NCBI GenBank assembly: GCA_005885405.1
Contig: VAYN01000005.1
Span: forward strand, 9,819-73,818
DNA: 64,000 bases
Direction of reading: 5' to 3'
Source of the DNA: Actinomycetota bacterium
GTDB lineage: Bacteria; Actinomycetota; Thermoleophilia; Solirubrobacterales; 70-9
Part shown: in pieces, positions 23,059 through 61,853 of the stretch
How positions within the stretch are numbered: the first letter of the stretch is position 1
How the letters are laid out: each line of letters begins with the position of its first letter
Program-made: the position numbers and the translations under genes
The notes under the pieces: generated by a model
Told to the model about the DNA's origin: nothing
What the model saw: the letters and a program-made list of their open reading frames with translations, nothing else
The model's database searches: none

Positions 23059-23979
23059 CTAGCCGCGCGAGGCGCCGGACACCGCCAGCGCCACCGCAAT
23101 GTCCGCAGCAACCCGATCCGGCTCGCTCTCCAGCTGCGTGTCGTCGTAGCGGAGAGCGGTGTAGCCGGCAGAGCGGAGGTCGAGGTCGCGGGCGTGGTCG
23201 TCTTGGAAGGCGACGGAGCCGCGGTGGTAGGTCCAGAAGTCGGTCTCGACTACGACTCTCTGGTCACGCCAGAGGAAATCCACGGTCCAGCGGCCCAGCT
23301 TGACGTTGACCTCCGGGTGCGGGAGGCCGTAGCGGTGGACGATGTCGAGGAAGAGGGTCTCGAGGTCTGAGCGGGTGCGGTCGGTGGCCAGGTGCTCGAG
23401 GCGGTAGCCCTTGAGCTCGGCCTGGCGGGTGGCGCGACGGAGGAGGTGGGGCTCGAGGAATGAGGTGCTTCGGAGATCTTCGAGGGTGCGGGCGACGGTC
23501 GTGACCGGGATGTTGTGGCGGTGGGTGACTAGGAGCCTTCCCCGTCGCCCTCCTTCTTGCTGCGAGTAGGAGGGCGACGGGGAAGGCTCTGGGTGCGGAT
23601 TGAGGGAGGGGGTGCGATGAAGGTGGATGCCGGGCCGGCGGGAGCGACCCGAGGCGGATGGGACGGAAATGTGGACGGGGCCGTCGATCGGCTTCAGGAG
23701 CTCCCAGAGGACCGCGGCGGAGACGTGGCTCAAGACGGCGCCTGGGCCGCAGGCGAGCACCGCCGCCATGAAGCGCCCGTGGAGGCTCAGGCCGCGGTGC
23801 CCGACGGCGTAGACGCCGCGGTAAATGCGATGGAGGCGCCCGTTTCGCGAGCGTTCCGAGATCGCCATCCGTCCCATTCCCACGGCCGCTAGCTGCTTCG
23901 CCGTCACTACCCCGTGCTGTCCAGCGGCGATCCGAGAAACCTCGGCATCGGGCGTGTCGACTTTGTAAGGCATAGCCAT
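23059..23979 (-). CDS. AbiEi_4-like N-terminal domain plus DUF559 (Vsr-like endonuclease fold) protein
   Basis: The N-terminus (GVVTAKQLAAVGMGRMAISERSRNGRLHRIYRGVYAV) and the C-terminus (LPHPEVNVKLGRWTVDFLWRDQRVVVETDFWTYH) match the widespread actinobacterial DUF559 family. It carries an in-frame hairpin insertion at 23533..23589. Confidence 0.75.
   Translation of the reverse strand: MAMPYKVDTPDAEVSRIAAGQHGVVTAKQLAAVGMGRMAISERSRNGRLHRIYRGVYAVGHRGLSLHGRFMAAVLACGPGAVLSHVSAAVLWELLKPIDGPVHISVPSASGRSRRPGIHLHRTPSLNPHPEPSPSPSYSQQEGGRRGRLLVTHRHNIPVTTVARTLEDLRSTSFLEPHLLRRATRQAELKGYRLEHLATDRTRSDLETLFLDIVHRYGLPHPEVNVKLGRWTVDFLWRDQRVVVETDFWTYHRGSVAFQDDHARDLDLRSAGYTALRYDDTQLESEPDRVAADIAVALAVSGASRG
23533..23589. 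repeat. perfect 22-bp-stem / 13-nt-loop palindrome inside the DUF559 coding sequence
   Basis: gagccttccccgtcgccctcct-tcttgctgcgagt-aggagggcgacggggaaggctc. It is 57 nt, a multiple of 3, and the ORF stays open. It encodes roughly PSPSPSYSQQEGGRRGR. Confidence 0.85.
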
Positions 23980-24012
23980 ACAAAGTCGACAGGGACCCTG
24001 GGTTCTCCCCCC

Positions 24013-31041: not shown

Positions 31042-32412
31042 GTGAGCCTGAGACCCCGCCCGGCGCTGGCGGTCGCGGCGGCGCTGGTTCTGGCCGCCGC
31101 TTCCCTCACCCTCCCCTACCACCCGGTCTACGACCCCTGGGCCTGGCTCGTCTGGGGCCGGGAGCTGTTTCACGGCGCCTTCGAGACCGCGGCGGGGCCG
31201 TCTTGGAAGCCGCTGCCGGTCCTCGTCGACGCGCCGCTCTCGCTGCTCGGCGACGCGGCCCCGCAGGCGTGGCTGCTGGTCGCCCGCACCGGCTGGTTCA
31301 GCGCCGCCTTCCTGGCCGGCATGCTGGCCTGGCGCTTGAGCGGCAGGGAGACGGGCCGCTGGCGCTGGGTCGCGGCGGCGATCGCGGCGGCCTCGGTGGC
31401 GCTGACCGCCGACTCCTTCACGCCGCCGCTGCGCCAGTTCACCGGCGGCCTCTCCGAGCCGCTGCTGGTGGCGCTGGTCCTGGGAGCGATCTGGGCCGCG
31501 CTCGACGAGCGCCGCGGTTGGGTACTGGGGCTGGGAACGGCGGCGGCATTGCTGCGCCCGGAAGTCTGGCCCTTCCTCGCCCTTTGGGCCTACTTCGCGA
31601 GCCGCGGCCGGCCCCAACTGCGAGCCGCCGCGATCGCCTGCGCGATCCTCATCCCCTTCGCCTGGTTCGTCCCCGACATTGTCGGCGCCGGGACGCCGTT
31701 AGAGGGCGGCGAGACGGCGCGCGCCGGCGGCATCGAGCCCCTCGATGGCCTTGACGTCTTGGGACGAGCCTTAGCCGCCCCCCTCCTGGCCTGCTGGATC
31801 GGCCTCGGCGTCTTGCTCTGGCGAGAACGAAGCGACCTGGAGCAAACAATGAAGATCCTCCTGTCGGGCGCCGCCGCCTGGATCCTCCTCGTCGCCGTAA
31901 TGGCGATCGTCGGCTTCGCCGGCCTCCCCCGCTTCCTCGCCCCCGCCACCGCGATCGTCGCCGTCCTTGGCAGCGTCGGTGTCGCCCGCGCCGCCGCAGG
32001 GTGTGGTCGAGCTTCGTGGCGCTATCCGCCACAAAGCTCAATTACACCCCTTCGGGGACTGGTTGCGGCCACGCTCCTCCTCGCCGCCTTCGGCGTCGGC
32101 TGGCGCGTCGCCCAGATCCCCGATGACGTCCGCGTCGTCGAGCGCCAGACCAGCTCGATTGACCATCTCTTCGACCTCGTCGAGAAGACCGGCGACACGC
32201 GGCTGCTCTCTTGCCAGGGTTACGTGCGGATGACGCGGGTGCGCGAGCAGACCGCGCTGGCCTGGAAGCTCGATGAGCCGATCTCCTCCGTAGCAATCCG
32301 GCGACTTCCTGAATTCGGCGTCGCTCTCTCGACCAAACCGCTGCCGGGCGGGGACGTGATCGCGCACGCCGGCGGCTGGCGCGCGACCCGCTTCCCCTGC
32401 CCTACTCGCTGA
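31042..32412 (+). CDS. polytopic membrane protein, GT-C-glycosyltransferase-like (family not verified)
   Basis: 456 aa with about 10 TM segments plus a soluble C-terminal domain, sited in a glycosyltransferase neighbourhood. It contains the family-A palindrome in-frame. Confidence 0.55.
   Translation: MSLRPRPALAVAAALVLAAASLTLPYHPVYDPWAWLVWGRELFHGAFETAAGPSWKPLPVLVDAPLSLLGDAAPQAWLLVARTGWFSAAFLAGMLAWRLSGRETGRWRWVAAAIAAASVALTADSFTPPLRQFTGGLSEPLLVALVLGAIWAALDERRGWVLGLGTAAALLRPEVWPFLALWAYFASRGRPQLRAAAIACAILIPFAWFVPDIVGAGTPLEGGETARAGGIEPLDGLDVLGRALAAPLLACWIGLGVLLWRERSDLEQTMKILLSGAAAWILLVAVMAIVGFAGLPRFLAPATAIVAVLGSVGVARAAAGCGRASWRYPPQSSITPLRGLVAATLLLAAFGVGWRVAQIPDDVRVVERQTSSIDHLFDLVEKTGDTRLLSCQGYVRMTRVREQTALAWKLDEPISSVAIRRLPEFGVALSTKPLPGGDVIAHAGGWRATRFPCPTR
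32001..32049. repeat. family-A palindromic element, copy A1 (in-frame in 31042..32412)
   Basis: gtgtggtcgagcttcgtggcgctatccgccacaaagctcaattacaccc. It is 45/49 identical to 60316..60364 on the same strand. Terminal inverted arms are about 14 bp. Confidence 0.85.
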
Positions 32413-33919: not shown

Positions 33920-34867
33920 ATGCCAGCCTCCACCCCGGGCTCAGAGGGCACCCCCGCGCGCCCGCTCATCCTTGCCGCGATCGTACCGGCGACCGACGAT
34001 CCTCCGACTCTGGCGCGGGCCCGGACGGCGCTTGAAACTGGGTCCCGCAGGCCCGACCAGCTGATCGTTCAGCGCGAGGGCACCGGCCCCGCTGCCGCCC
34101 GCAACCGCGCTGCGGCCGGGAGCGAGGCCGACGTGCTCGTCTTCGTTGACTCCGACGTTGAGGTCCATGGCGACGCCCTGGAGCTGATTGAGCGGCGCTT
34201 CAATGCGGATCCAGGGCTAGTGGCGCTCTTCGGCGCCTACGACGATTCCCCGGCGGACCCCGGCTTGCCCTCCCAGTACCGCAACCTCCTCCATCACCAC
34301 GTCCACACCGGCGCCCCCGGCGATGCGGAGACCTTCTGGGCGGGCCTCGGGGCGATCCGGCGGGAGCGCTTCGAAGAAGCCGGCGGTTTCGACGCCGACC
34401 GCTACCCGCAGCCGAGCATCGAGGACATCGAGCTGGGGATGCGGCTGCGCCGCCGCGGCGCCCGGATCGCCCTCGATCCCCGGATCCGCGGTCGCCACCT
34501 CAAGCGCTGGACCCCGCTCAGCATCGCCCGCACCGATTTCGCCCGCCGCGGCGTTCCGTGGACGCGGCTGCTCCTACAGGAGGGCAGCGGCAGCACTGCC
34601 CTCAACCTCGGCTGGCGGCGACGCGCCAGCGCCGCCGCCAGCGCTGCACTGCTGGCCTCGCTCGTCGCGCGGCGACCACGGCTCGCGGCGGGGGCGCTGG
34701 CGGCGAACCTCGTTCTCGACCGCCACCTCTACGCGCTGCTGCTCCGCCGCGGCGGGCCGAAGCTCCTTCTCGCCGGTGTTTCCCTCCACCAGCTCCACCA
34801 GCTCTGCGCCACGGCCTCGGTTCCGGCTGCCGTCGTCCTCCATGCGATCGACGGGCGGCGCGGCTGA
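33920..34867 (+). CDS. family-2 glycosyltransferase with hydrophobic C-terminal region
   Basis: GT-A pattern (AAIVPATDD...AARNRAAAGSEADVLVFVDSDVEV) and a DxD-like motif. Confidence 0.75.
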   Translation: MPASTPGSEGTPARPLILAAIVPATDDPPTLARARTALETGSRRPDQLIVQREGTGPAAARNRAAAGSEADVLVFVDSDVEVHGDALELIERRFNADPGLVALFGAYDDSPADPGLPSQYRNLLHHHVHTGAPGDAETFWAGLGAIRRERFEEAGGFDADRYPQPSIEDIELGMRLRRRGARIALDPRIRGRHLKRWTPLSIARTDFARRGVPWTRLLLQEGSGSTALNLGWRRRASAAASAALLASLVARRPRLAAGALAANLVLDRHLYALLLRRGGPKLLLAGVSLHQLHQLCATASVPAAVVLHAIDGRRG

Positions 34868-35826
34868 TGAGGATCGGGATTGCCGGCTGCGGCCGGATCG
34901 CCGAACGCGGCTACGTGCCGGCGGCGCTGGCGGCGGAGGGGGTGACGATCGCCGGCTTCGCCGACCCCGACGGCGAGCGGCTCGATCGCTGTCGGCGGCT
35001 TTGGGCGGAGGAGGGTGACGAGGCTCCAGGCTTTGCCGACGTCGCCTCGCTGCTCGCGTCGGTCGCGGTCGACCTGCTCGTCGTCTCGGCACCCGCCGAC
35101 CATCACGAAGCACTGGCGGCAGAGGCGGCCGCGGCTGGAGTCAGGTCCTTTGTCGAGAAGCCGCCCGCTCCCGACCTCGAGGGCGCGCGCCGCCTGGCAG
35201 ACCTCGACCCGCAACCCCTCATCGCCTTCAACCGCCGTTTCCTCCAGGGCGCCGAGCTGCGCGACTCGATCCCCGCCGAAGGATGGCTGGAGCTCGACCT
35301 GGAGTTGCGCTTCCGCCGCGACAGCTGGGGCGCCCACGAGGCGCACGACGAGGCACTCCTCGATGCCGGCATCCATCTGATTGACCTCGCCTGCTTCCTC
35401 ACCGATTCGGCCCCGATCGCCGTCCGCGGCGCAGAGGTGAAACACGAGCGGGCGGACCTGGAGGTGGAGCTCGCCCGGGGCCGCGCCCGGATCAGCTGCG
35501 CGACGGATCGATCGCACCGCGAGGCGATCAGGGTCACCGACCGCTCTGGAAGGACACTGGCCCGGTCGCATTGGGGCGGCATCGGCGGCCGCCTCGCGGG
35601 TCTGATCGGGAGGCCCGACCCACTGGTCGTTTCCCTGCAACGTCAGCTAGAGGCGGTGGGGGTGTCCCTGATGGACCCTCCCCATTTTGTCCAGCAGGGA
35701 TACCCCCATCGCCTCGCCACAGCAGCCGATGGCGTCGCCGCGTTGGCTGTTGTCGAGGCAGCACGTCGTTCCGCTGAACTGAACGGCGCCGAGGTCACCG
35801 TCGAGCAGGCCGAGGCCACCGCGTGA
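34867..35826 (+). CDS. Gfo/Idh/MocA-family NAD(P)-dependent oxidoreductase
   Basis: MRIGIAGCGRIAERGYVPAL... Rossmann N-terminus. The ATG overlaps the upstream stop (ATGA). Confidence 0.8.
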   Translation: MRIGIAGCGRIAERGYVPAALAAEGVTIAGFADPDGERLDRCRRLWAEEGDEAPGFADVASLLASVAVDLLVVSAPADHHEALAAEAAAAGVRSFVEKPPAPDLEGARRLADLDPQPLIAFNRRFLQGAELRDSIPAEGWLELDLELRFRRDSWGAHEAHDEALLDAGIHLIDLACFLTDSAPIAVRGAEVKHERADLEVELARGRARISCATDRSHREAIRVTDRSGRTLARSHWGGIGGRLAGLIGRPDPLVVSLQRQLEAVGVSLMDPPHFVQQGYPHRLATAADGVAALAVVEAARRSAELNGAEVTVEQAEATA

Positions 35827-37322
35827 TCGCCGTCATCCAGTTCGACGCCGCCAGTGCCCGCCTGCTGGAACGGCTCGGGGACGAAGGCCGCCTGCCAAAC
35901 CTGGAGGCGCTGCAGGCGCGGGGAACCCGCATCGCTCTGGAGACCCCTGCCGAACACTTCCCCGCCAGCGCCTATCAGGACCTCTACCGCGGAGTCGAGG
36001 TCGGCGACCACGGGCTCTTCTACCCCTTCCAGTGGGCCGGCGACGACCAGCGGGTGCGGCTGGCAGGCACCTTCGAGGCGCCGCCACCGATCTGGGACCG
36101 CCTCGGCCGCGCCGGCCGCAGCACCCTCGCAATCGACCCTTACGAGTGCCACCGACCAGGGGAGGCACGGGGGGAGCTCTTCGACGGCTGGGGGATGCGG
36201 GAGCGGGTGGTGCTCGAGCGCTGGTCGGTGCCGGACGGAGCTGACCGCGGGCCGCGCCGTCGCCACGGCCGTCCGCCCGATGTCACCGAGGTCTTCGGCG
36301 CGCAAACGCCAAAGGAGCTGCGCCAACTGCGCGAGCGCTTCCTGGCGGCGCCCAAGCGCGTCGCCGACCTCGCGATCGAGCGCCTGCGCGAGCGCGATTT
36401 CGACCTCGCCTGGATCGTCTTCGCCGCCCCCCACCTCGCCGGCCACCGCCTCTGGGGAGATGACGCCCTCACCGAGATCTACGAGGAGGTCGACGCCCAG
36501 CTCGGCCGCGTCCTCGAGGCGCTGGCGGACGACTGCGACGTGATCGCCTGCTCAGTCTTGGGCATGGATGAGAACACCAGCCGAGCCGACCTCCTGCCGG
36601 AGATGCTCTCAGCCGTCCTAGCCGGCCCCAGGCAAAGTCGTGGTTCCTTAGTCCGGAATAACAGGACAAAGGAACCACGGAACTCGGAGGACTCCGACTC
36701 TGGGGCGATATGGCGGCTTCGCGGGGCGCTCTCGGGGCGGATGCGGGCCCGGATTGCCGCCGCGATGCCGGACCGGATGGCGCTGGAGCTGACGGCGCGG
36801 CTGGAGCTTCGCGGCATCGACTGGAGCTCGACCCGCGCCTTCGCCCACCCGGCCGACAACCAGGGCTACATCCGCTTCAACCGCACCGGGCGCGAGCGCG
36901 ACGGGATCGTTGGCAGCGGCGAGGCGGAGGAGCTGGCGGCGCAGATCCGCGAGGGCCTACTCGACTTCCGCGACCCCGACGGACAGCCGGCGGTGACTGC
37001 GGTCGACGCCGTCAGCGAGCGTTGGCATGGAGCCGCGGCCGACCGCCTCCCCGACCTCGTCGTCCGCTGGCGCCCCACCTCCTCGGTCGCCCTCGACGCG
37101 GTCCACTCCCCCAGCTTCGGCACCGTGCGCCGCCACGGCGCCGGCAGCGGCCGCACCGGCAACCACACCGACGGCGACGCCTGGGCGATCCTCGCCCCCC
37201 GCAGCGCCCGCGTCCGCGACCTGGGGCGCCAGGCAAAGGTCACCGACATCACCGCCACGGTCGCTGCCGCGAGCGACGTACCGCTCGAAGGTCTCAGCGG
37301 CGAGCCGCTCCTGCAGCGGTAG
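35823..37322 (+). CDS. alkaline-phosphatase-superfamily protein (nucleotide pyrophosphatase/phosphodiesterase-like, divergent)
   Basis: The N-terminus (IQFDAAS...LPNLEAL...FPASAYQDLYRGVEVGDHG) and C-terminus (GNHTDGDAWAI) resemble PF01663-type enzymes. The central SDHG-like motif is degenerate. It contains the family-B palindrome in-frame. Confidence 0.6.
   Translation: MIAVIQFDAASARLLERLGDEGRLPNLEALQARGTRIALETPAEHFPASAYQDLYRGVEVGDHGLFYPFQWAGDDQRVRLAGTFEAPPPIWDRLGRAGRSTLAIDPYECHRPGEARGELFDGWGMRERVVLERWSVPDGADRGPRRRHGRPPDVTEVFGAQTPKELRQLRERFLAAPKRVADLAIERLRERDFDLAWIVFAAPHLAGHRLWGDDALTEIYEEVDAQLGRVLEALADDCDVIACSVLGMDENTSRADLLPEMLSAVLAGPRQSRGSLVRNNRTKEPRNSEDSDSGAIWRLRGALSGRMRARIAAAMPDRMALELTARLELRGIDWSSTRAFAHPADNQGYIRFNRTGRERDGIVGSGEAEELAAQIREGLLDFRDPDGQPAVTAVDAVSERWHGAAADRLPDLVVRWRPTSSVALDAVHSPSFGTVRRHGAGSGRTGNHTDGDAWAILAPRSARVRDLGRQAKVTDITATVAAASDVPLEGLSGEPLLQR
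36637..36683. repeat. family-B palindromic element, copy B1 (in-frame in 35823..37322)
   Basis: gtcgtggttccttagtccggaataacaggacaaaggaaccacggaac. Over 45 nt it is 41/45 identical to the reverse complement of 60543..60591. It forms a local low-GC pocket. Confidence 0.85.
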
Positions 37323-53986: not shown

Positions 53987-54790
53987 TCAGCCCTGACGCA
54001 GCAACAGGGCGGCCCAGTCGCCGTCCTGGCGCCGGTCGGCCTCCTTCAACCCGACTCGAGCGTATGCGCCGGAGACCTGATTGATCTCTTGAGGAAGCAG
54101 ACCCGAGCAGACCAGCGTTTGCGGGACGTCCTTGAGAAGTTCGGCCACGGCCAGAAGGATCGGCGCGGTCATGTTCGCAACCACGGTCGGAGCCAGCGCG
54201 GGCAGCTGTTCCCGCAAATTGGCGCGCTCCAGATCGAGATCAACCTCGTTGGCCGCCGCATTGGCTGCGGCGGCTTCTATCGCCGCCGGCTCGTGGTCGT
54301 AGCCGCGAACCGGCCCCCAGCCGAGTTTCGACGCCGCGATGGCGAGGACGCCGGAGCCGGTGCCGAGATCCACCAGCTCTCCCCCCGGTTCCAGTTCGCA
54401 GAGGTATCCGAGGCAGAGGCGGGTGGTCGGGTGGGCTCCCGTGCCGAAGGCCTGGCCGGGGTCGACGACGATGTCGATCGTGCCCTCGCGTGGCGGCTCC
54501 CACGACGGGCGAAGCCAGAGGCGGTCGGCGACCAGAAGCGGCTTGTGGAAGTCGCGCCAGCGGTCGGCCCAGTCGTCGGGGATCTCGGTGGCGCTGACCT
54601 CGACCCGGCCGCCGGCGATCGTCGCGTCGAGGTCGCCCAGCTCCGGCAGCTCCCCCTCTCCGCCATAGATCGCGTACTCGACGTAGCCAGGTCCACGCTC
54701 CTCCTCGACCCCGTTTGGGGCCAACACCGTCAGCTCGGCGAGGACAAGATCGGCCTGCTCGGGGGCACAGCGGACCGCGAGACGGATCAA
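53987..54790 (-). CDS. prmA: ribosomal protein L11 methyltransferase
   Basis: SAM motif VDLGTGSGVLAIAASKLG and the PrmA N-terminal domain. Confidence 0.85.
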   Translation of the reverse strand: MIRLAVRCAPEQADLVLAELTVLAPNGVEEERGPGYVEYAIYGGEGELPELGDLDATIAGGRVEVSATEIPDDWADRWRDFHKPLLVADRLWLRPSWEPPREGTIDIVVDPGQAFGTGAHPTTRLCLGYLCELEPGGELVDLGTGSGVLAIAASKLGWGPVRGYDHEPAAIEAAAANAAANEVDLDLERANLREQLPALAPTVVANMTAPILLAVAELLKDVPQTLVCSGLLPQEINQVSGAYARVGLKEADRRQDGDWAALLLRQG

Positions 54791-59669: not shown

Positions 59670-59720
59670 GGGCGGGGGATGAGTATGAGGGACGGGGGTG
59701 GTTGGCGCGCGGGTCCCGTC

Positions 59721-59801
59721 GGGGGGTCCGGGGGTCCATCTCCAGACACATCTCGCCTATGGCTCATGTTGAGTGTCTGGCGACGAACCCCCGGACCCCC
59801 C
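59721..59801. repeat. 81-nt nested palindrome in the intergenic region (15-bp outer arms, 8-bp inner arms)
   Basis: Outer arms are ggggggtccgggggt (59721..59735) and acccccggacccccc (59787..59801). Inner arms are ccagacac (59742..59749) and gtgtctgg (59773..59780). Confidence 0.75.
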
Positions 59802-59822
59802 GCCACCCGCGCGAGAGGCCGC

Positions 59823-61853
59823 CTAGCTACACCCCGAGGGACCGAGGTTGGTGGGCAGTTGGAGGACTGCCGTGGGAGGCTGTTTCAAGATGAGTTTGCC
59901 TCCCATGCGCTCGATCCACTTGGCTGCGGGTGGGTATGGAGGCTTGCCGGGTTCCAGACGGTCGCGGGTGGCTACTGCGTAGTCGTAGTCGCCCTCTTTG
60001 AGTAGCTGGAGGTACTGCTCGCAGGTGGTTGGGGCCTCGAAGCCGCCGTGGGGCTGCTCGATGCCTAGGTACTGGACGTGGTTGGAGAGGTCGGTGCCGA
60101 AGAGGGGGTACTGGCGGGTGCTGGTGGTGGCGATGCGGGCGTCGGAGACCTCGCGCGCCCAGGCGAAAGCCGCGTTGAGGCCTGGGGCCGAGGTGAAGCT
60201 CGGGTCCTCGTACCGGCCCTCCAGGTAGTGGCGCTGGACGGGGTAACCGACCGCGATCGCCAGCAGGAGCGCCGCGGCTCCACCCGCGATAGCCCATTGA
60301 CCGCCTCTCCGCGGAGTGTGGTTGAGCTTCGTGGCGCTATCCGCCCCAAAGCTCAACCACACCCGGAGGCGGGGGGCCGTTGGCAGCAGGGCGAGGCCGA
60401 GGACCAGGGCCGGGGCGAGGTAGCGGAGACCGGACTCGAAGCCACGCGGCATCCCGTCCGGACCCGAGGCCGACGTCGGCGCCACCAGCCACGCCAGCGC
60501 CGTCGCCAAACCCACTGCGCCCGCCAGCGCCAGCGTCAAATCGTTCCGTGGTTCCTTTGTCCTGATATCCCGGACAAAAGAACCACGGAACTGGACGACG
60601 GCGAGGATCAGGCCGGCCAAGGCGGCGGCGAGCAGGAGCGGCCAGAGGAGCCAGAGGCCGTCGTGGAGACCAGGGAGGAACCAGTCCGACCAGACGCTGC
60701 CGTCGCTGAGGTAGCCGAGGACGGAGTGGGCTTCGCGGCCGCCGAGGGCCTGCTGGGGCGCGGGCAGATCGATCGGACCGAGGTGGCGGATCCAAGGGAG
60801 CGGATTGCCGCTGTGGGCGAGGTTGCGGAGGTACCAGTAGCCGCCGCCGGCCAGTGCGGCCAAGGCCGCGGCGCCAACCGCGCGGCCTTTTAGGCCGCGC
60901 GGCGCGATAAGACCAACGCCGAACACCAGCACCGCCGCCGGCAGGAGGAAGTTGAGCTTCGTCCCCGCCGCCAGCCCCGCGCACAAACCGACCACGAGAT
61001 ACGACCCGAACGCAGTTGTCCCCGGTATGCGGGGATAAGTGCGTTCGGCTGCCGAACCCTCCCAGGCGTTGAGCGCGATCGCCACCGCGCTCAGCAGAAA
61101 GAAGATCCCGACGATGTCGTTCCTCGCCTCCCCCGCCTGGTCCGCCAGCGCCGGAACGCTGAGCGCGATGGCGCCAAGGGCCAGCGACCACGGCGCCACT
61201 CGATAGGGGCGCCCGATACACCAACACGCGACCAAACACCCCACGAACCAGCCGATGTTGAGCAGCGGCGATAGCACGTCCCGGCCGAACGCCAGCATCC
61301 CGGCCGCGTGGAAGATTTCTCCGTTCGCTGGGTAGAACCAGGCCAGGAACTGCGGAGCGATGAAGAGCAGATTCCACGTGTCGCCGCTCTGATAGAACCC
61401 CGCCGCGAACGGCCCGTGGTACCAGGTGCTGTCGAACCCGGTCATCCCCGTCGAAAGCTTCGACTTCGCTTCCCAGGCAAAGAGAGCGACCGCGATCCCG
61501 GCAACAACAAACGCAATCGCCGCCGGGAGGGGGGTCATCCGCACCCTTACCTGCGAAGTAGGGTGCGGATGACCCCCCTCCCCCTCGGACCGCGGCAAGA
61601 ACCTCCAAAGACCGAGCCCCGCTGCACCAACGAGCACCAAGTACGGCACCGGCTCCCACAGGCCGAAGCTCCCGAGCAGCTCCGCGCCCCAAATCAGCAA
61701 CGCCAGCGCCACCACCGCGCTAGCCAGATACGCCGGCGCCCCCTCGAACCGCGGCAACAGCCTCCTGCGCACCGCGTCCCCGCCCAGCCAGGCGAACCCG
61801 CCCAGCAGCAGCACCTCTAGAACGCCCAGCAGGTACCGCCCCGATCCGAGCAT
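59823..61853 (-). CDS. large polytopic membrane protein, GT-C-glycosyltransferase-like (family not verified), carrying three in-frame palindromic insertions
   Basis: 676 aa with more than 12 TM segments plus a soluble C-terminal domain. The insertions are at 60316..60364, 60543..60591 and 61525..61582. Confidence 0.6.
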   Translation of the reverse strand: MLGSGRYLLGVLEVLLLGGFAWLGGDAVRRRLLPRFEGAPAYLASAVVALALLIWGAELLGSFGLWEPVPYLVLVGAAGLGLWRFLPRSEGEGGHPHPTSQVRVRMTPLPAAIAFVVAGIAVALFAWEAKSKLSTGMTGFDSTWYHGPFAAGFYQSGDTWNLLFIAPQFLAWFYPANGEIFHAAGMLAFGRDVLSPLLNIGWFVGCLVACWCIGRPYRVAPWSLALGAIALSVPALADQAGEARNDIVGIFFLLSAVAIALNAWEGSAAERTYPRIPGTTAFGSYLVVGLCAGLAAGTKLNFLLPAAVLVFGVGLIAPRGLKGRAVGAAALAALAGGGYWYLRNLAHSGNPLPWIRHLGPIDLPAPQQALGGREAHSVLGYLSDGSVWSDWFLPGLHDGLWLLWPLLLAAALAGLILAVVQFRGSFVRDIRTKEPRNDLTLALAGAVGLATALAWLVAPTSASGPDGMPRGFESGLRYLAPALVLGLALLPTAPRLRVWLSFGADSATKLNHTPRRGGQWAIAGGAAALLLAIAVGYPVQRHYLEGRYEDPSFTSAPGLNAAFAWAREVSDARIATTSTRQYPLFGTDLSNHVQYLGIEQPHGGFEAPTTCEQYLQLLKEGDYDYAVATRDRLEPGKPPYPPAAKWIERMGGKLILKQPPTAVLQLPTNLGPSGCS
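60316..60364. repeat. family-A palindromic element, copy A2
   Basis: gtgtggttgagcttcgtggcgctatccgccccaaagctcaaccacaccc. Arms are gtgtggttgagctt / aagctcaaccacac. It is translated in the host as SFGADSATKLNHTPRRG. Confidence 0.85.
60543..60591. repeat. family-B palindromic element, copy B2
   Basis: gttccgtggttcctttgtcc-tgatatccc-ggacaaaagaaccacggaac, with 19/20 matching arms. It is translated in the host as FRGSFVRDIRTKEPRN. Confidence 0.85.
61525..61582. repeat. perfect 22-bp-stem / 14-nt-loop palindrome inside the membrane-protein gene
   Basis: ggaggggggtcatccgcaccc... in detail: left arm 61525..61546, loop ttacctgcgaagta, right arm 61561..61582. It is translated as EGEGGHPHPTSQVRVRMTPLP. 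Confidence 0.85.

Follow-up and report, generated by a model that had tools for sequence, protein, structure and literature searches.

A stretch of 64,000 nucleotides from a member of the Solirubrobacterales (Actinomycetota bacterium, lineage 70-9; GenBank assembly GCA_005885405.1, contig VAYN01000005.1, positions 9,819 to 73,818; hereafter the window) holds a gene for a polytopic membrane protein whose open reading frame (ORF) carries four DNA palindromes without being broken by them. These palindromes probably belong to several families of tiny (~45-85 nt), hairpin-only, non-autonomous selfish repeats that are dispersed in Solirubrobacterales and kept where they are in frame. Orthologous sites show gain, loss and replacement of the elements; what is conserved in them is the DNA palindrome, and most copies are intergenic. 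Inside genes they survive only where their length keeps the frame and the frame that is read has no stop. Because the surviving in-gene copies keep the frame in this way, they would be translated as extra loop residues. In the gene in question, referred to below as the host gene, they have accumulated in four loops between helices, where almost any length or sequence is tolerated.

The four palindromes of the host gene, elements C, D, B2 and A2, are listed with the other hairpins of the window in Table 1. They were folded as single-stranded DNA and compared with 200 dinucleotide shuffles, none of which reached the observed folding energy of any of the four; their arm patterns are found 2-4 times, as against 0-0.4 expected. 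A sequence-only reading of this DNA had placed three palindromes inside the intact ORF. The three are real, and the peptides quoted for them all occur in the translation, where junction peptides such as EGEGGHPHPTSQVR, GSFVR/DIR/TKEPR and VWLSFGADSATK would span the inserts; the count, however, has to be corrected, as a fourth palindrome, element D, had been overlooked. All four fall between hydrophobic or helical segments, as judged from hydropathy and from the secondary structure of a low-confidence AlphaFold model, which supports the suggested location between transmembrane segments. The AlphaFold2 model, obtained with 30 close orthologues, has a predicted local distance difference test (pLDDT) score of 42, which makes it unusable for a fold search.

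Table 1. Host gene and hairpin elements of the window. Positions count from the first nucleotide of the window; aa, amino acids; z, folding energy relative to dinucleotide shuffles.
Feature	Position	Strand	Description
Host gene	59823..61853	-	ORF, 676 codons/676 aa; polytopic membrane protein, no named family
Element C	61525..61582		site C, aa 91-110, GEGGHPHPTSQVRVRMTPLP; 23-bp arms 100% complementary, 12-nt loop ACTTCGCAGGTA; z -9.1
Element D	61006..61048		site D, aa 269-283, AERTYPRIPGTTAFG; 19-nt arms at 89%, loop CATAC; z -4.4
Element B2	60543..60591		site B, aa 421-437, QFRGSFVRDIRTKEPRN; 20-nt arms at 95%; z -7.7
Element A2	60304..60374		site A, aa 498-513, VWLSFGADSATKLNHT; core 60316-60362, weaker outer pairing to 60304-60374; z -7.9
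I1	59720..59802		intergenic, directly downstream of host gene; 30-nt arms, 23-nt loop; z -6.8
A1	32001..32047		second A copy; in frame in ORF 31042..32412 (+), third reading frame
B1	~36637..36683		second B copy; in frame in phosphodiesterase-family gene 35823..37322 (+)
E-like hairpin	35650..35715		in frame in GFO/IDH/MocA oxidoreductase gene 34867..35826 (+); z -7.8
I2	23533..23589		22-bp perfect arms, C-like loop; in frame in AbiEi_4/DUF559 gene 23059..23979 (-); z -9.6
I20	23955..23991		ATA apex of A/B superfamily type; overlaps start codon of DUF559 gene

The host gene follows murJ at a distance of 6 nt and is itself followed by lepA. Its product has no match in a Pfam, NCBIfam or PDB profile search, and its homologues (more than 3000) are all annotated as 'hypothetical' and all derive from metagenome-assembled genomes (MAGs) of Solirubrobacterales; the family comprises 2811 clusters at 50% identity. 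For comparison we aligned 81 genes, namely the window gene and its orthologues from 80 loci (designated by L numbers) fetched with 10-kb flanks. Identity is ~64% at third codon positions, as against ~80% over the full set of positions, and hundreds of residues do not vary. Together, third-position divergence and invariant residues indicate a constrained gene that is intact and under purifying selection, and not a pseudogene, a possibility that the sequence-only reading had named as one that would refute it. A single open frame is kept in the orthologues checked, with the exception of L030, where the match is split at site C, and of four genes cut by contig ends. Translational bypass or a split gene is ruled out by the open frame through the inserts, by the enrichment of multiple-of-three lengths among the copies in coding sequence and by a stop-removing change in A1.

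Several further observations concern this gene and its family. The MAG contigs L054, L055, L067 and L069 begin exactly at the site C hairpin; the frame break at site C in L030 (L030:10001-12057) is found in a long-read MAG; and in some gene calls M106, a position within hairpin C, was taken as the start of the protein (proteins P0004, P0020 and P0072). A second subfamily, 35% identical and 740-753 aa long, is represented by L094:2691-4952, L120:3283-5505, L143:6262-8490 and L173:9570-11801. The A element found in these distant homologues occupies the loop homologous to site D.

Across the 81 genes, conservation collapses in exactly four stretches (aa ~85-112, 263-285, 418-441 and 493-530), which are the positions of the palindromes. 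Site C holds a hairpin in most orthologues, from at least three families (C, I1-type and 'J' type); the C family is the occupant in most orthologues, and it is the I1 family that fills the site in L010, L016, L019, L023, L026, L035 and L048. Three families (B, Bv and G) are found at site B next to empty sites of 18 aa rather than 33 aa, and degenerate copies are also present there, for example in L002 and L004; the B2 insertion itself is delimited against the empty orthologues L007, L025 and L032. Site A holds the A family and a 12-bp type, together with many relatives of A that have the centre TTTG..nATAG..CAAA in common. Hairpins are rarer at site D, where many orthologues are empty (again 18 aa versus 33 aa) or have a non-palindromic Gly/Glu-rich insert; element D itself is carried by the window gene, L001 and L003, with related hairpins in L058, L074 and L077. 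The alignment with orthologues proposed by the earlier reading to delimit the insertions thus yields empty alleles at sites B and D. It also shows that the palindrome always accompanies the peptide: orthologues with the same peptide share the palindrome, and the others have a different loop or none, so that no orthologue was seen to share one of the peptides without the palindromy. The Gly/Glu-rich insert of site D (AWGGDGGTEKKLGREGGGAGVG) is conserved in ~35 orthologues (for example L013 and L008) and could represent a different type of repeat or an element in decay.

The distribution of the families over the orthologue tree is a mosaic, and close relatives differ in the family that occupies a site while the length of the loop stays similar. 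Identity between elements can reach 100% over 58 nt even though the third positions of the genes that carry them are only 61-71% identical. Allelic recombination was considered as a cause of the mosaic and rejected: long tracts do not explain it, because similarity within 30 codons on either side is no higher among carriers of one family than between carriers of different families. The pattern fits conserved master sequences from which elements are repeatedly inserted or replaced, or strong replicator selection as proposed for REPINs. Since site D has at least two hairpin types, and sites A, B and C have three or more families each, the occupancy shows several independent events within 2 kb, despite partial inheritance.

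The same families are found well beyond the host gene. Scanning of soil metagenome contigs for the exact arms of the A family returned 100 loci, a number that counts metagenome loci and not copies per genome; by codon-usage gene call, ~74 copies are intergenic and 19 are internal to coding sequence. They adjoin ordinary housekeeping genes, and their hosts include the target gene with 8 copies and its distant homologue with 4, besides GT4 glycosyltransferases, a DAO oxidoreductase and unknown proteins. The consensus reads GG-GTGTGGTTGAGCTT-TG-[variable]-nATAG-[variable]-CA-AAGCTCAACCACAC-CC. The 47-nt length class, which becomes 51 nt or 17 codons when the GG/CC ends are included, accounts for 18 of the 19 copies in coding sequence as against 60 of the 81 elsewhere, and the element is read in three frames across its hosts, as VWLSF..KLNHT, as GVVEL..KAQPH and, after a stop-removing change, as GCGRASW... 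A second example is the E-family hairpin of 66 nt (RGREPGEGSADNSGEGPATPPP), present in frame in the methyltransferase domain of PrmA (ribosomal protein L11 methyltransferase) in ~35 related genomes (carriers include L001, L006, L008, L010, L012 and L016, at ~17.1-18.0 kb). The window copy of PrmA (53987..54790, - strand) is empty, so that the difference is a clean presence or absence of 66 nt, and the insertion has no target-site duplication. From the 100 A loci, their housekeeping neighbours, the varied hosts, the three frames and the presence or absence in PrmA, it follows that the families are dispersed and multi-copy, that in-gene copies are filtered for frame integrity, and that the peptide itself is not what is conserved. 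Two other accounts of these copies were discarded. Exact A or C copies are absent from the viral collection, which speaks against a phage origin, and intergenic copies show no excess over baseline between convergent genes, which speaks against a role as terminators.

Hairpins were then counted in 1.53 Mb, the window plus the 80 orthologous loci, with a score of matches minus twice the mismatches, a threshold of at least 14, loops of at most 32 nt and genes called by a purpose-built simple codon-usage caller, according to which 92% of the DNA is coding. A total of 201 hairpins was observed, as compared with 5 in a Markov-1 control. The target orthologues contain 123 of them (0.74/kb), the 1441 other genes 38 (0.031/kb) and intergenic DNA 41 (0.32/kb), densities that include instances partly inherited vertically. 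Of the 78 hairpins outside the target, 41 are not fully within coding sequence. At least one strong hairpin is present in 71 of the 81 orthologues, at least two in 40 and at least three in 11, whereas none of the 1441 neighbouring genes has two; in the window alone, the probability of at least three hairpins in 2 kb is 3e-4. The idea that a single gene acts as an insertion hot-spot is therefore borne out in a stronger form than first proposed, with four sites. Its companion claim that no core gene carries an element holds within the window and fails elsewhere, given the in-frame element of PrmA, and the description of the carriers as non-core does not suit the target gene, which is conserved across the order.

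We suggest that the hot-spot would arise mainly from the tolerance of the loops. It could instead be mechanistic, through targeted insertion or cassette exchange in which elements home to hairpins already in place or to specific loop sequences, or in which ectopic conversion between elements with common outer arms exchanges their inner part, a possibility that we take seriously but regard as unlikely. In its favor, different families occupy the same loops with boundaries that agree within a few codons and with similar loop lengths, C-type and I1-type elements at site C start with the same outer arm GAGGGGGA, and A2 is enclosed by a weaker outer palindrome. That the flanks are not family-specific, as described above, also counts here, against simple allelic recombination. 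Among the flanks of A elements examined at loci L083/L084, L087 and L104, one intergenic A sits within another palindrome (..CCAAAAC tag [A] ccg GTTTTGG..), which looks like a nested insertion into a pre-existing hairpin. On the other hand, the B, Bv and G families do not enter site B at the same point, their positions being 1-3 codons apart when measured from conserved anchors, and no conserved target motif was found. The loops are permissive anyway, because they also hold long non-palindromic inserts, and partial vertical inheritance inflates the densities. The more specific proposal that insertion or exchange of elements is steered to sites that already hold a hairpin, whether through homing of one hairpin to another or through conversion between elements with shared outer arms, appears doubtful to us. 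If it were true, a conserved cell-envelope protein next to murJ would have gained four cassette-like hypervariable loops with repeat-driven turnover, which selection could exploit, for example by varying exposed loops.

The entity that is conserved in these elements can be examined most directly at site C. When 16 site-C elements are aligned without gaps, changes on both sides are seen in 11 of the 23 stem pairs (37 cells), one-sided changes are limited to 5 cells, and 97.3% of stem cells are paired, a value matched by none of 500 shuffles. Mismatches across 160 hairpins in coding sequence comprise 35 G:T and 24 A:C, and transversion types are common. Identical stems carry conserved loops in either orientation, as in L022 versus L041 and in I1+ versus I1-. 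Because the arms covary in Watson-Crick fashion, the loops flip and G:T is not favored, the comparison points to a DNA palindrome that would be recognized on either strand, rather than to an mRNA structure.

These observations bear on a further explanation, in which the hairpins are selected features, that is, mRNA or DNA structures for ribosome pausing during membrane insertion, for mRNA stability or for attenuation. We consider it improbable. It could account for the recurrence of hairpins, in most orthologues, at four fixed positions immediately behind transmembrane helices, for the strong covariation of the stems and for the conservation of element sequence far above that of synonymous sites. 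Yet 10 of the 81 orthologues lack a hairpin and most have none at sites B and D; degenerate copies persist, as those noted at site B; and the families are unrelated in sequence and also lie in intergenic DNA and in unrelated soluble enzymes. An mRNA function in particular is judged unlikely from the mismatch spectrum, with G:U not favored over A:C, and from the flipped loops, since with both orientations in use the RNA would differ between copies. A search of the whole window with Rfam gave nothing at gathering thresholds; a known RNA family was rejected as well, as E-value mode matched only generic miRNA-precursor hairpin models far below threshold.

An origin in place without mobility, by template switching or quasi-palindrome 'correction' in unconstrained loops, is very unlikely. 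Stems stay perfect despite sequence divergence and loops flip, both as templated copying between arms predicts, and the empty PrmA allele of L002 already holds the outermost 8 nt of the insert's right arm. Such a process does not explain why the same 47-58-nt sequences are found at unlinked loci of one genome and at 100 metagenome loci, why identical elements occur in genomes diverged at synonymous sites, or why whole elements are present or absent as units. As the sole source it is largely refuted by the dispersed identical copies, though it may contribute to arm complementarity. Finally, an assembly or binning artefact of MAGs has a negligible chance of being the explanation: palindromes do disturb assembly, as the four contigs that start at site C and the frame break in one long-read MAG illustrate, but the same in-frame elements are present in 80 independent MAGs, chromosome-level long-read assemblies included, and in 100 metagenome contigs from many samples, and identical proteins were retrieved from several sources.

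Based on these comparisons, we propose that the selfish repeats could be mobilized in trans as folded single-stranded hairpins, in the 'peel and paste' style of an HUH/Y1 transposase. This type of mobility would fit the lack of target duplications and the seamless empty sites. Complementarity of the arms might then be kept by replicator selection or by templated copying between arms, and the similar outer arms of the C and I1 types (GAGGGGGA..) may let one family replace another's inner part in place.

A number of results weigh against this account of selfish, mobile repeats kept by tolerance. No target-site duplication was found for the A family: of 95 copies, 73 have no flanking direct repeat and 20 have a 1-nt repeat. 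No asymmetric conserved flanking motif was found for the A family, whose flanks show only a weak symmetric signal, CAGG..CCTG. The tags known from other palindromic repeats are not enriched at the hairpin feet, either for GTAG (6.5% versus 6.1% in the control) or for CGTC (20% versus 18%); GT[AG]G reaches 27% versus 15%, driven by the paired GTGG..CCAC of A and B. No transposase, whether of the Y1 type, a REP-associated tyrosine transposase (RAYT; REP, repetitive extragenic palindromic sequence) or any other, is present among the 25 commonest Pfam families of 124 neighboring proteins, which is a weak test, and an HUH-Y regular expression had no match in ~2 Mb, also a weak test; a single-copy gene would probably lie outside the DNA covered. 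Copies with the same loop can have quite different stems in one genome (C versus I2, and the E element of PrmA versus the E-like hairpin of the window), which is unusual for a classical family of MITEs (transposable elements of the miniature inverted-repeat type). The density in the four loops (~3.6/kb) is ~10 times that of intergenic DNA, and tolerance alone hardly explains it; the same figure speaks for targeting. Mobilization is the weakest step of the proposal, because no enzyme was found and both loop orientations occur at one site.

In function the repeats would be analogous to REP, REPIN and MITE elements and, where they lie in genes, to Rickettsia palindromic elements (RPEs). Among known systems, the closest behavioral match is the RPEs (Ogata et al. 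2000, 2002), described in the summary of PMC10969869 as AT-rich elements of ~100-150 bp in the reduced genomes of obligate intracellular alphaproteobacteria. According to the same source, they too form several selfish palindromic families that lie in frame in unrelated genes and are read as extra surface or loop peptides; the corresponding hosts here are the target gene, PrmA, the phosphodiesterase, the DUF559 protein, oxidoreductases and GT4 transferases. The present elements differ in being 45-85 nt long, GC-rich (69% in the window), hairpin-only, mostly intergenic and resident in free-living soil Actinomycetota, with one conserved gene that has four recurrently re-used sites. The likeness is one of behavior, and membership in RPE-1 to RPE-10 is not claimed, because size, GC content and host phylum differ.

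Intragenic REPs (GTAG- or CGTC-tagged) are short, high-copy palindromes of which a minority lie in frame inside ORFs, sometimes two per ORF (Di Nocera et al. 2013, PMC3733652), and in-frame REPs also occur inside tnpAREP genes (PMC6006769). As with our elements, most are extragenic and the few in ORFs are thought harmless in loops, and the A family is itself a short, mostly extragenic palindrome (~74% intergenic among its 100 copies from metagenomes). Here, however, GTAG and CGTC are not enriched and a paired GTGG..CCAC near the foot is found only in A and B; the stems exceed those of REPs in length and are close to perfect; the weak tests above revealed no RAYT; and families turn over at orthologous sites, which is not described for intragenic REPs in PMC3733652 or PMC6006769. 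A REPIN is a doublet of two REPs, each palindromic, with a spacer, and 14 of 1067 16-mers overlap genes (Bertels & Rainey 2011, PMC3116915). Like REPIN-RAYT systems, our elements are hairpin replicators whose sequence is conserved for long within lineages, which could explain identical elements in diverged genomes; unlike REPINs, which are almost exclusively extragenic, ~20% of sampled A copies lie inside genes, no palindromy is present within the arms (for example GGGAGGGGGGTCATCCGCACCCT and GTGTGGTTGAGCTT) and the loops measure only 3-24 nt.

MITEs resemble the present elements in being small and non-autonomous, with terminal inverted repeats and occasional in-frame fusions (PMC10969869), but here there is no target-site duplication and, apart from a loop of 3-24 nt, the entire element consists of the inverted repeat. 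For our families no parent insertion sequence is known, and no search for one with these ends was made. Elements of the IS200/IS605 type (HUH) and palindrome-associated transposable elements (PATEs) share with them the lack of target duplication and the seamless empty sites. Such elements insert 3' of a specific tetra- or pentanucleotide and with an orientation bias; here the A flanks show the weak, symmetric signal given above, both loop orientations are found at site C, and for A the comparison of orientations is confounded by orthologous copies.

Tiny hairpins inside coding or structural-RNA genes, often nested, also occur as mobile GC-cluster palindromes of yeast mitochondria and as very small dispersed repeats of cyanobacteria, in different lineages and with different sequences. 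We found no paper on palindromic repeats in Solirubrobacterales. Because the tags are not enriched, there are no REP doublets and no MITE-type duplication, and no RAYT is known, we class our families apart from known ones and file them as REP/RPE-like coding palindromes in a new phylum-level setting, unusually small and with a recurrent four-site hot-spot.

The remaining hairpins of the window illustrate the spread of these families. Second copies of A and B in other window genes, as originally noted, are confirmed as A1 and B1; A1 can be read in the third frame because a TTGA to TCGA change removes the TGA stop of the consensus. The 'GT-C-like' label given to its host did not hold up, as this protein has no significant Pfam or NCBIfam match. 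The DUF559 gene encodes an MTES_1575-like nuclease and has one hairpin in frame and another over its start codon, and an A element is found at the 5' end of a DUF559-like gene in 11 metagenome loci (L092, L096, L106, L110, L128, L146, L151, L162, L171, L177 and L179). The 11 copies represent a single orthologous locus (73-85% identical) and are, for this reason, no evidence that the nuclease is the mobilizer; that candidate was set aside, and the association of the nuclease family with hairpins is only a lead. Syntenic intergenic hairpins of further families recur across genomes, both at ~14.8-15.1 kb in the loci (for example L038:14757-14834 and L061:15046-15131) and at ~12.1 kb, downstream of the target. 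Among them are F, with the loop GGCGGGAGCCTCGCTT, and J, with the loop GAGAACGTAAACCTCGCCCGCA. The families with G-rich arms (C, E, I1, F and J) share the arm motif GGGAGGGG(T/C)C, which resembles a Shine-Dalgarno/anti-Shine-Dalgarno pair.

In-frame coding palindromes have so far been described as a peculiarity of Rickettsia, together with scattered intragenic REPs; here they are found in abundant, free-living, GC-rich soil Actinomycetota. With hundreds of orthologues, each with four sites that have been filled, emptied and refilled, the host gene offers a natural experiment on target choice and re-use, on the upkeep of arm complementarity and on the share of repeats in the evolution of protein loops. 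In practical terms, the palindromes break short-read assemblies at the host gene and mislead gene callers, which in some cases place the start inside hairpin C; some of the variation in length within protein families of these MAGs may also be due to the elements.

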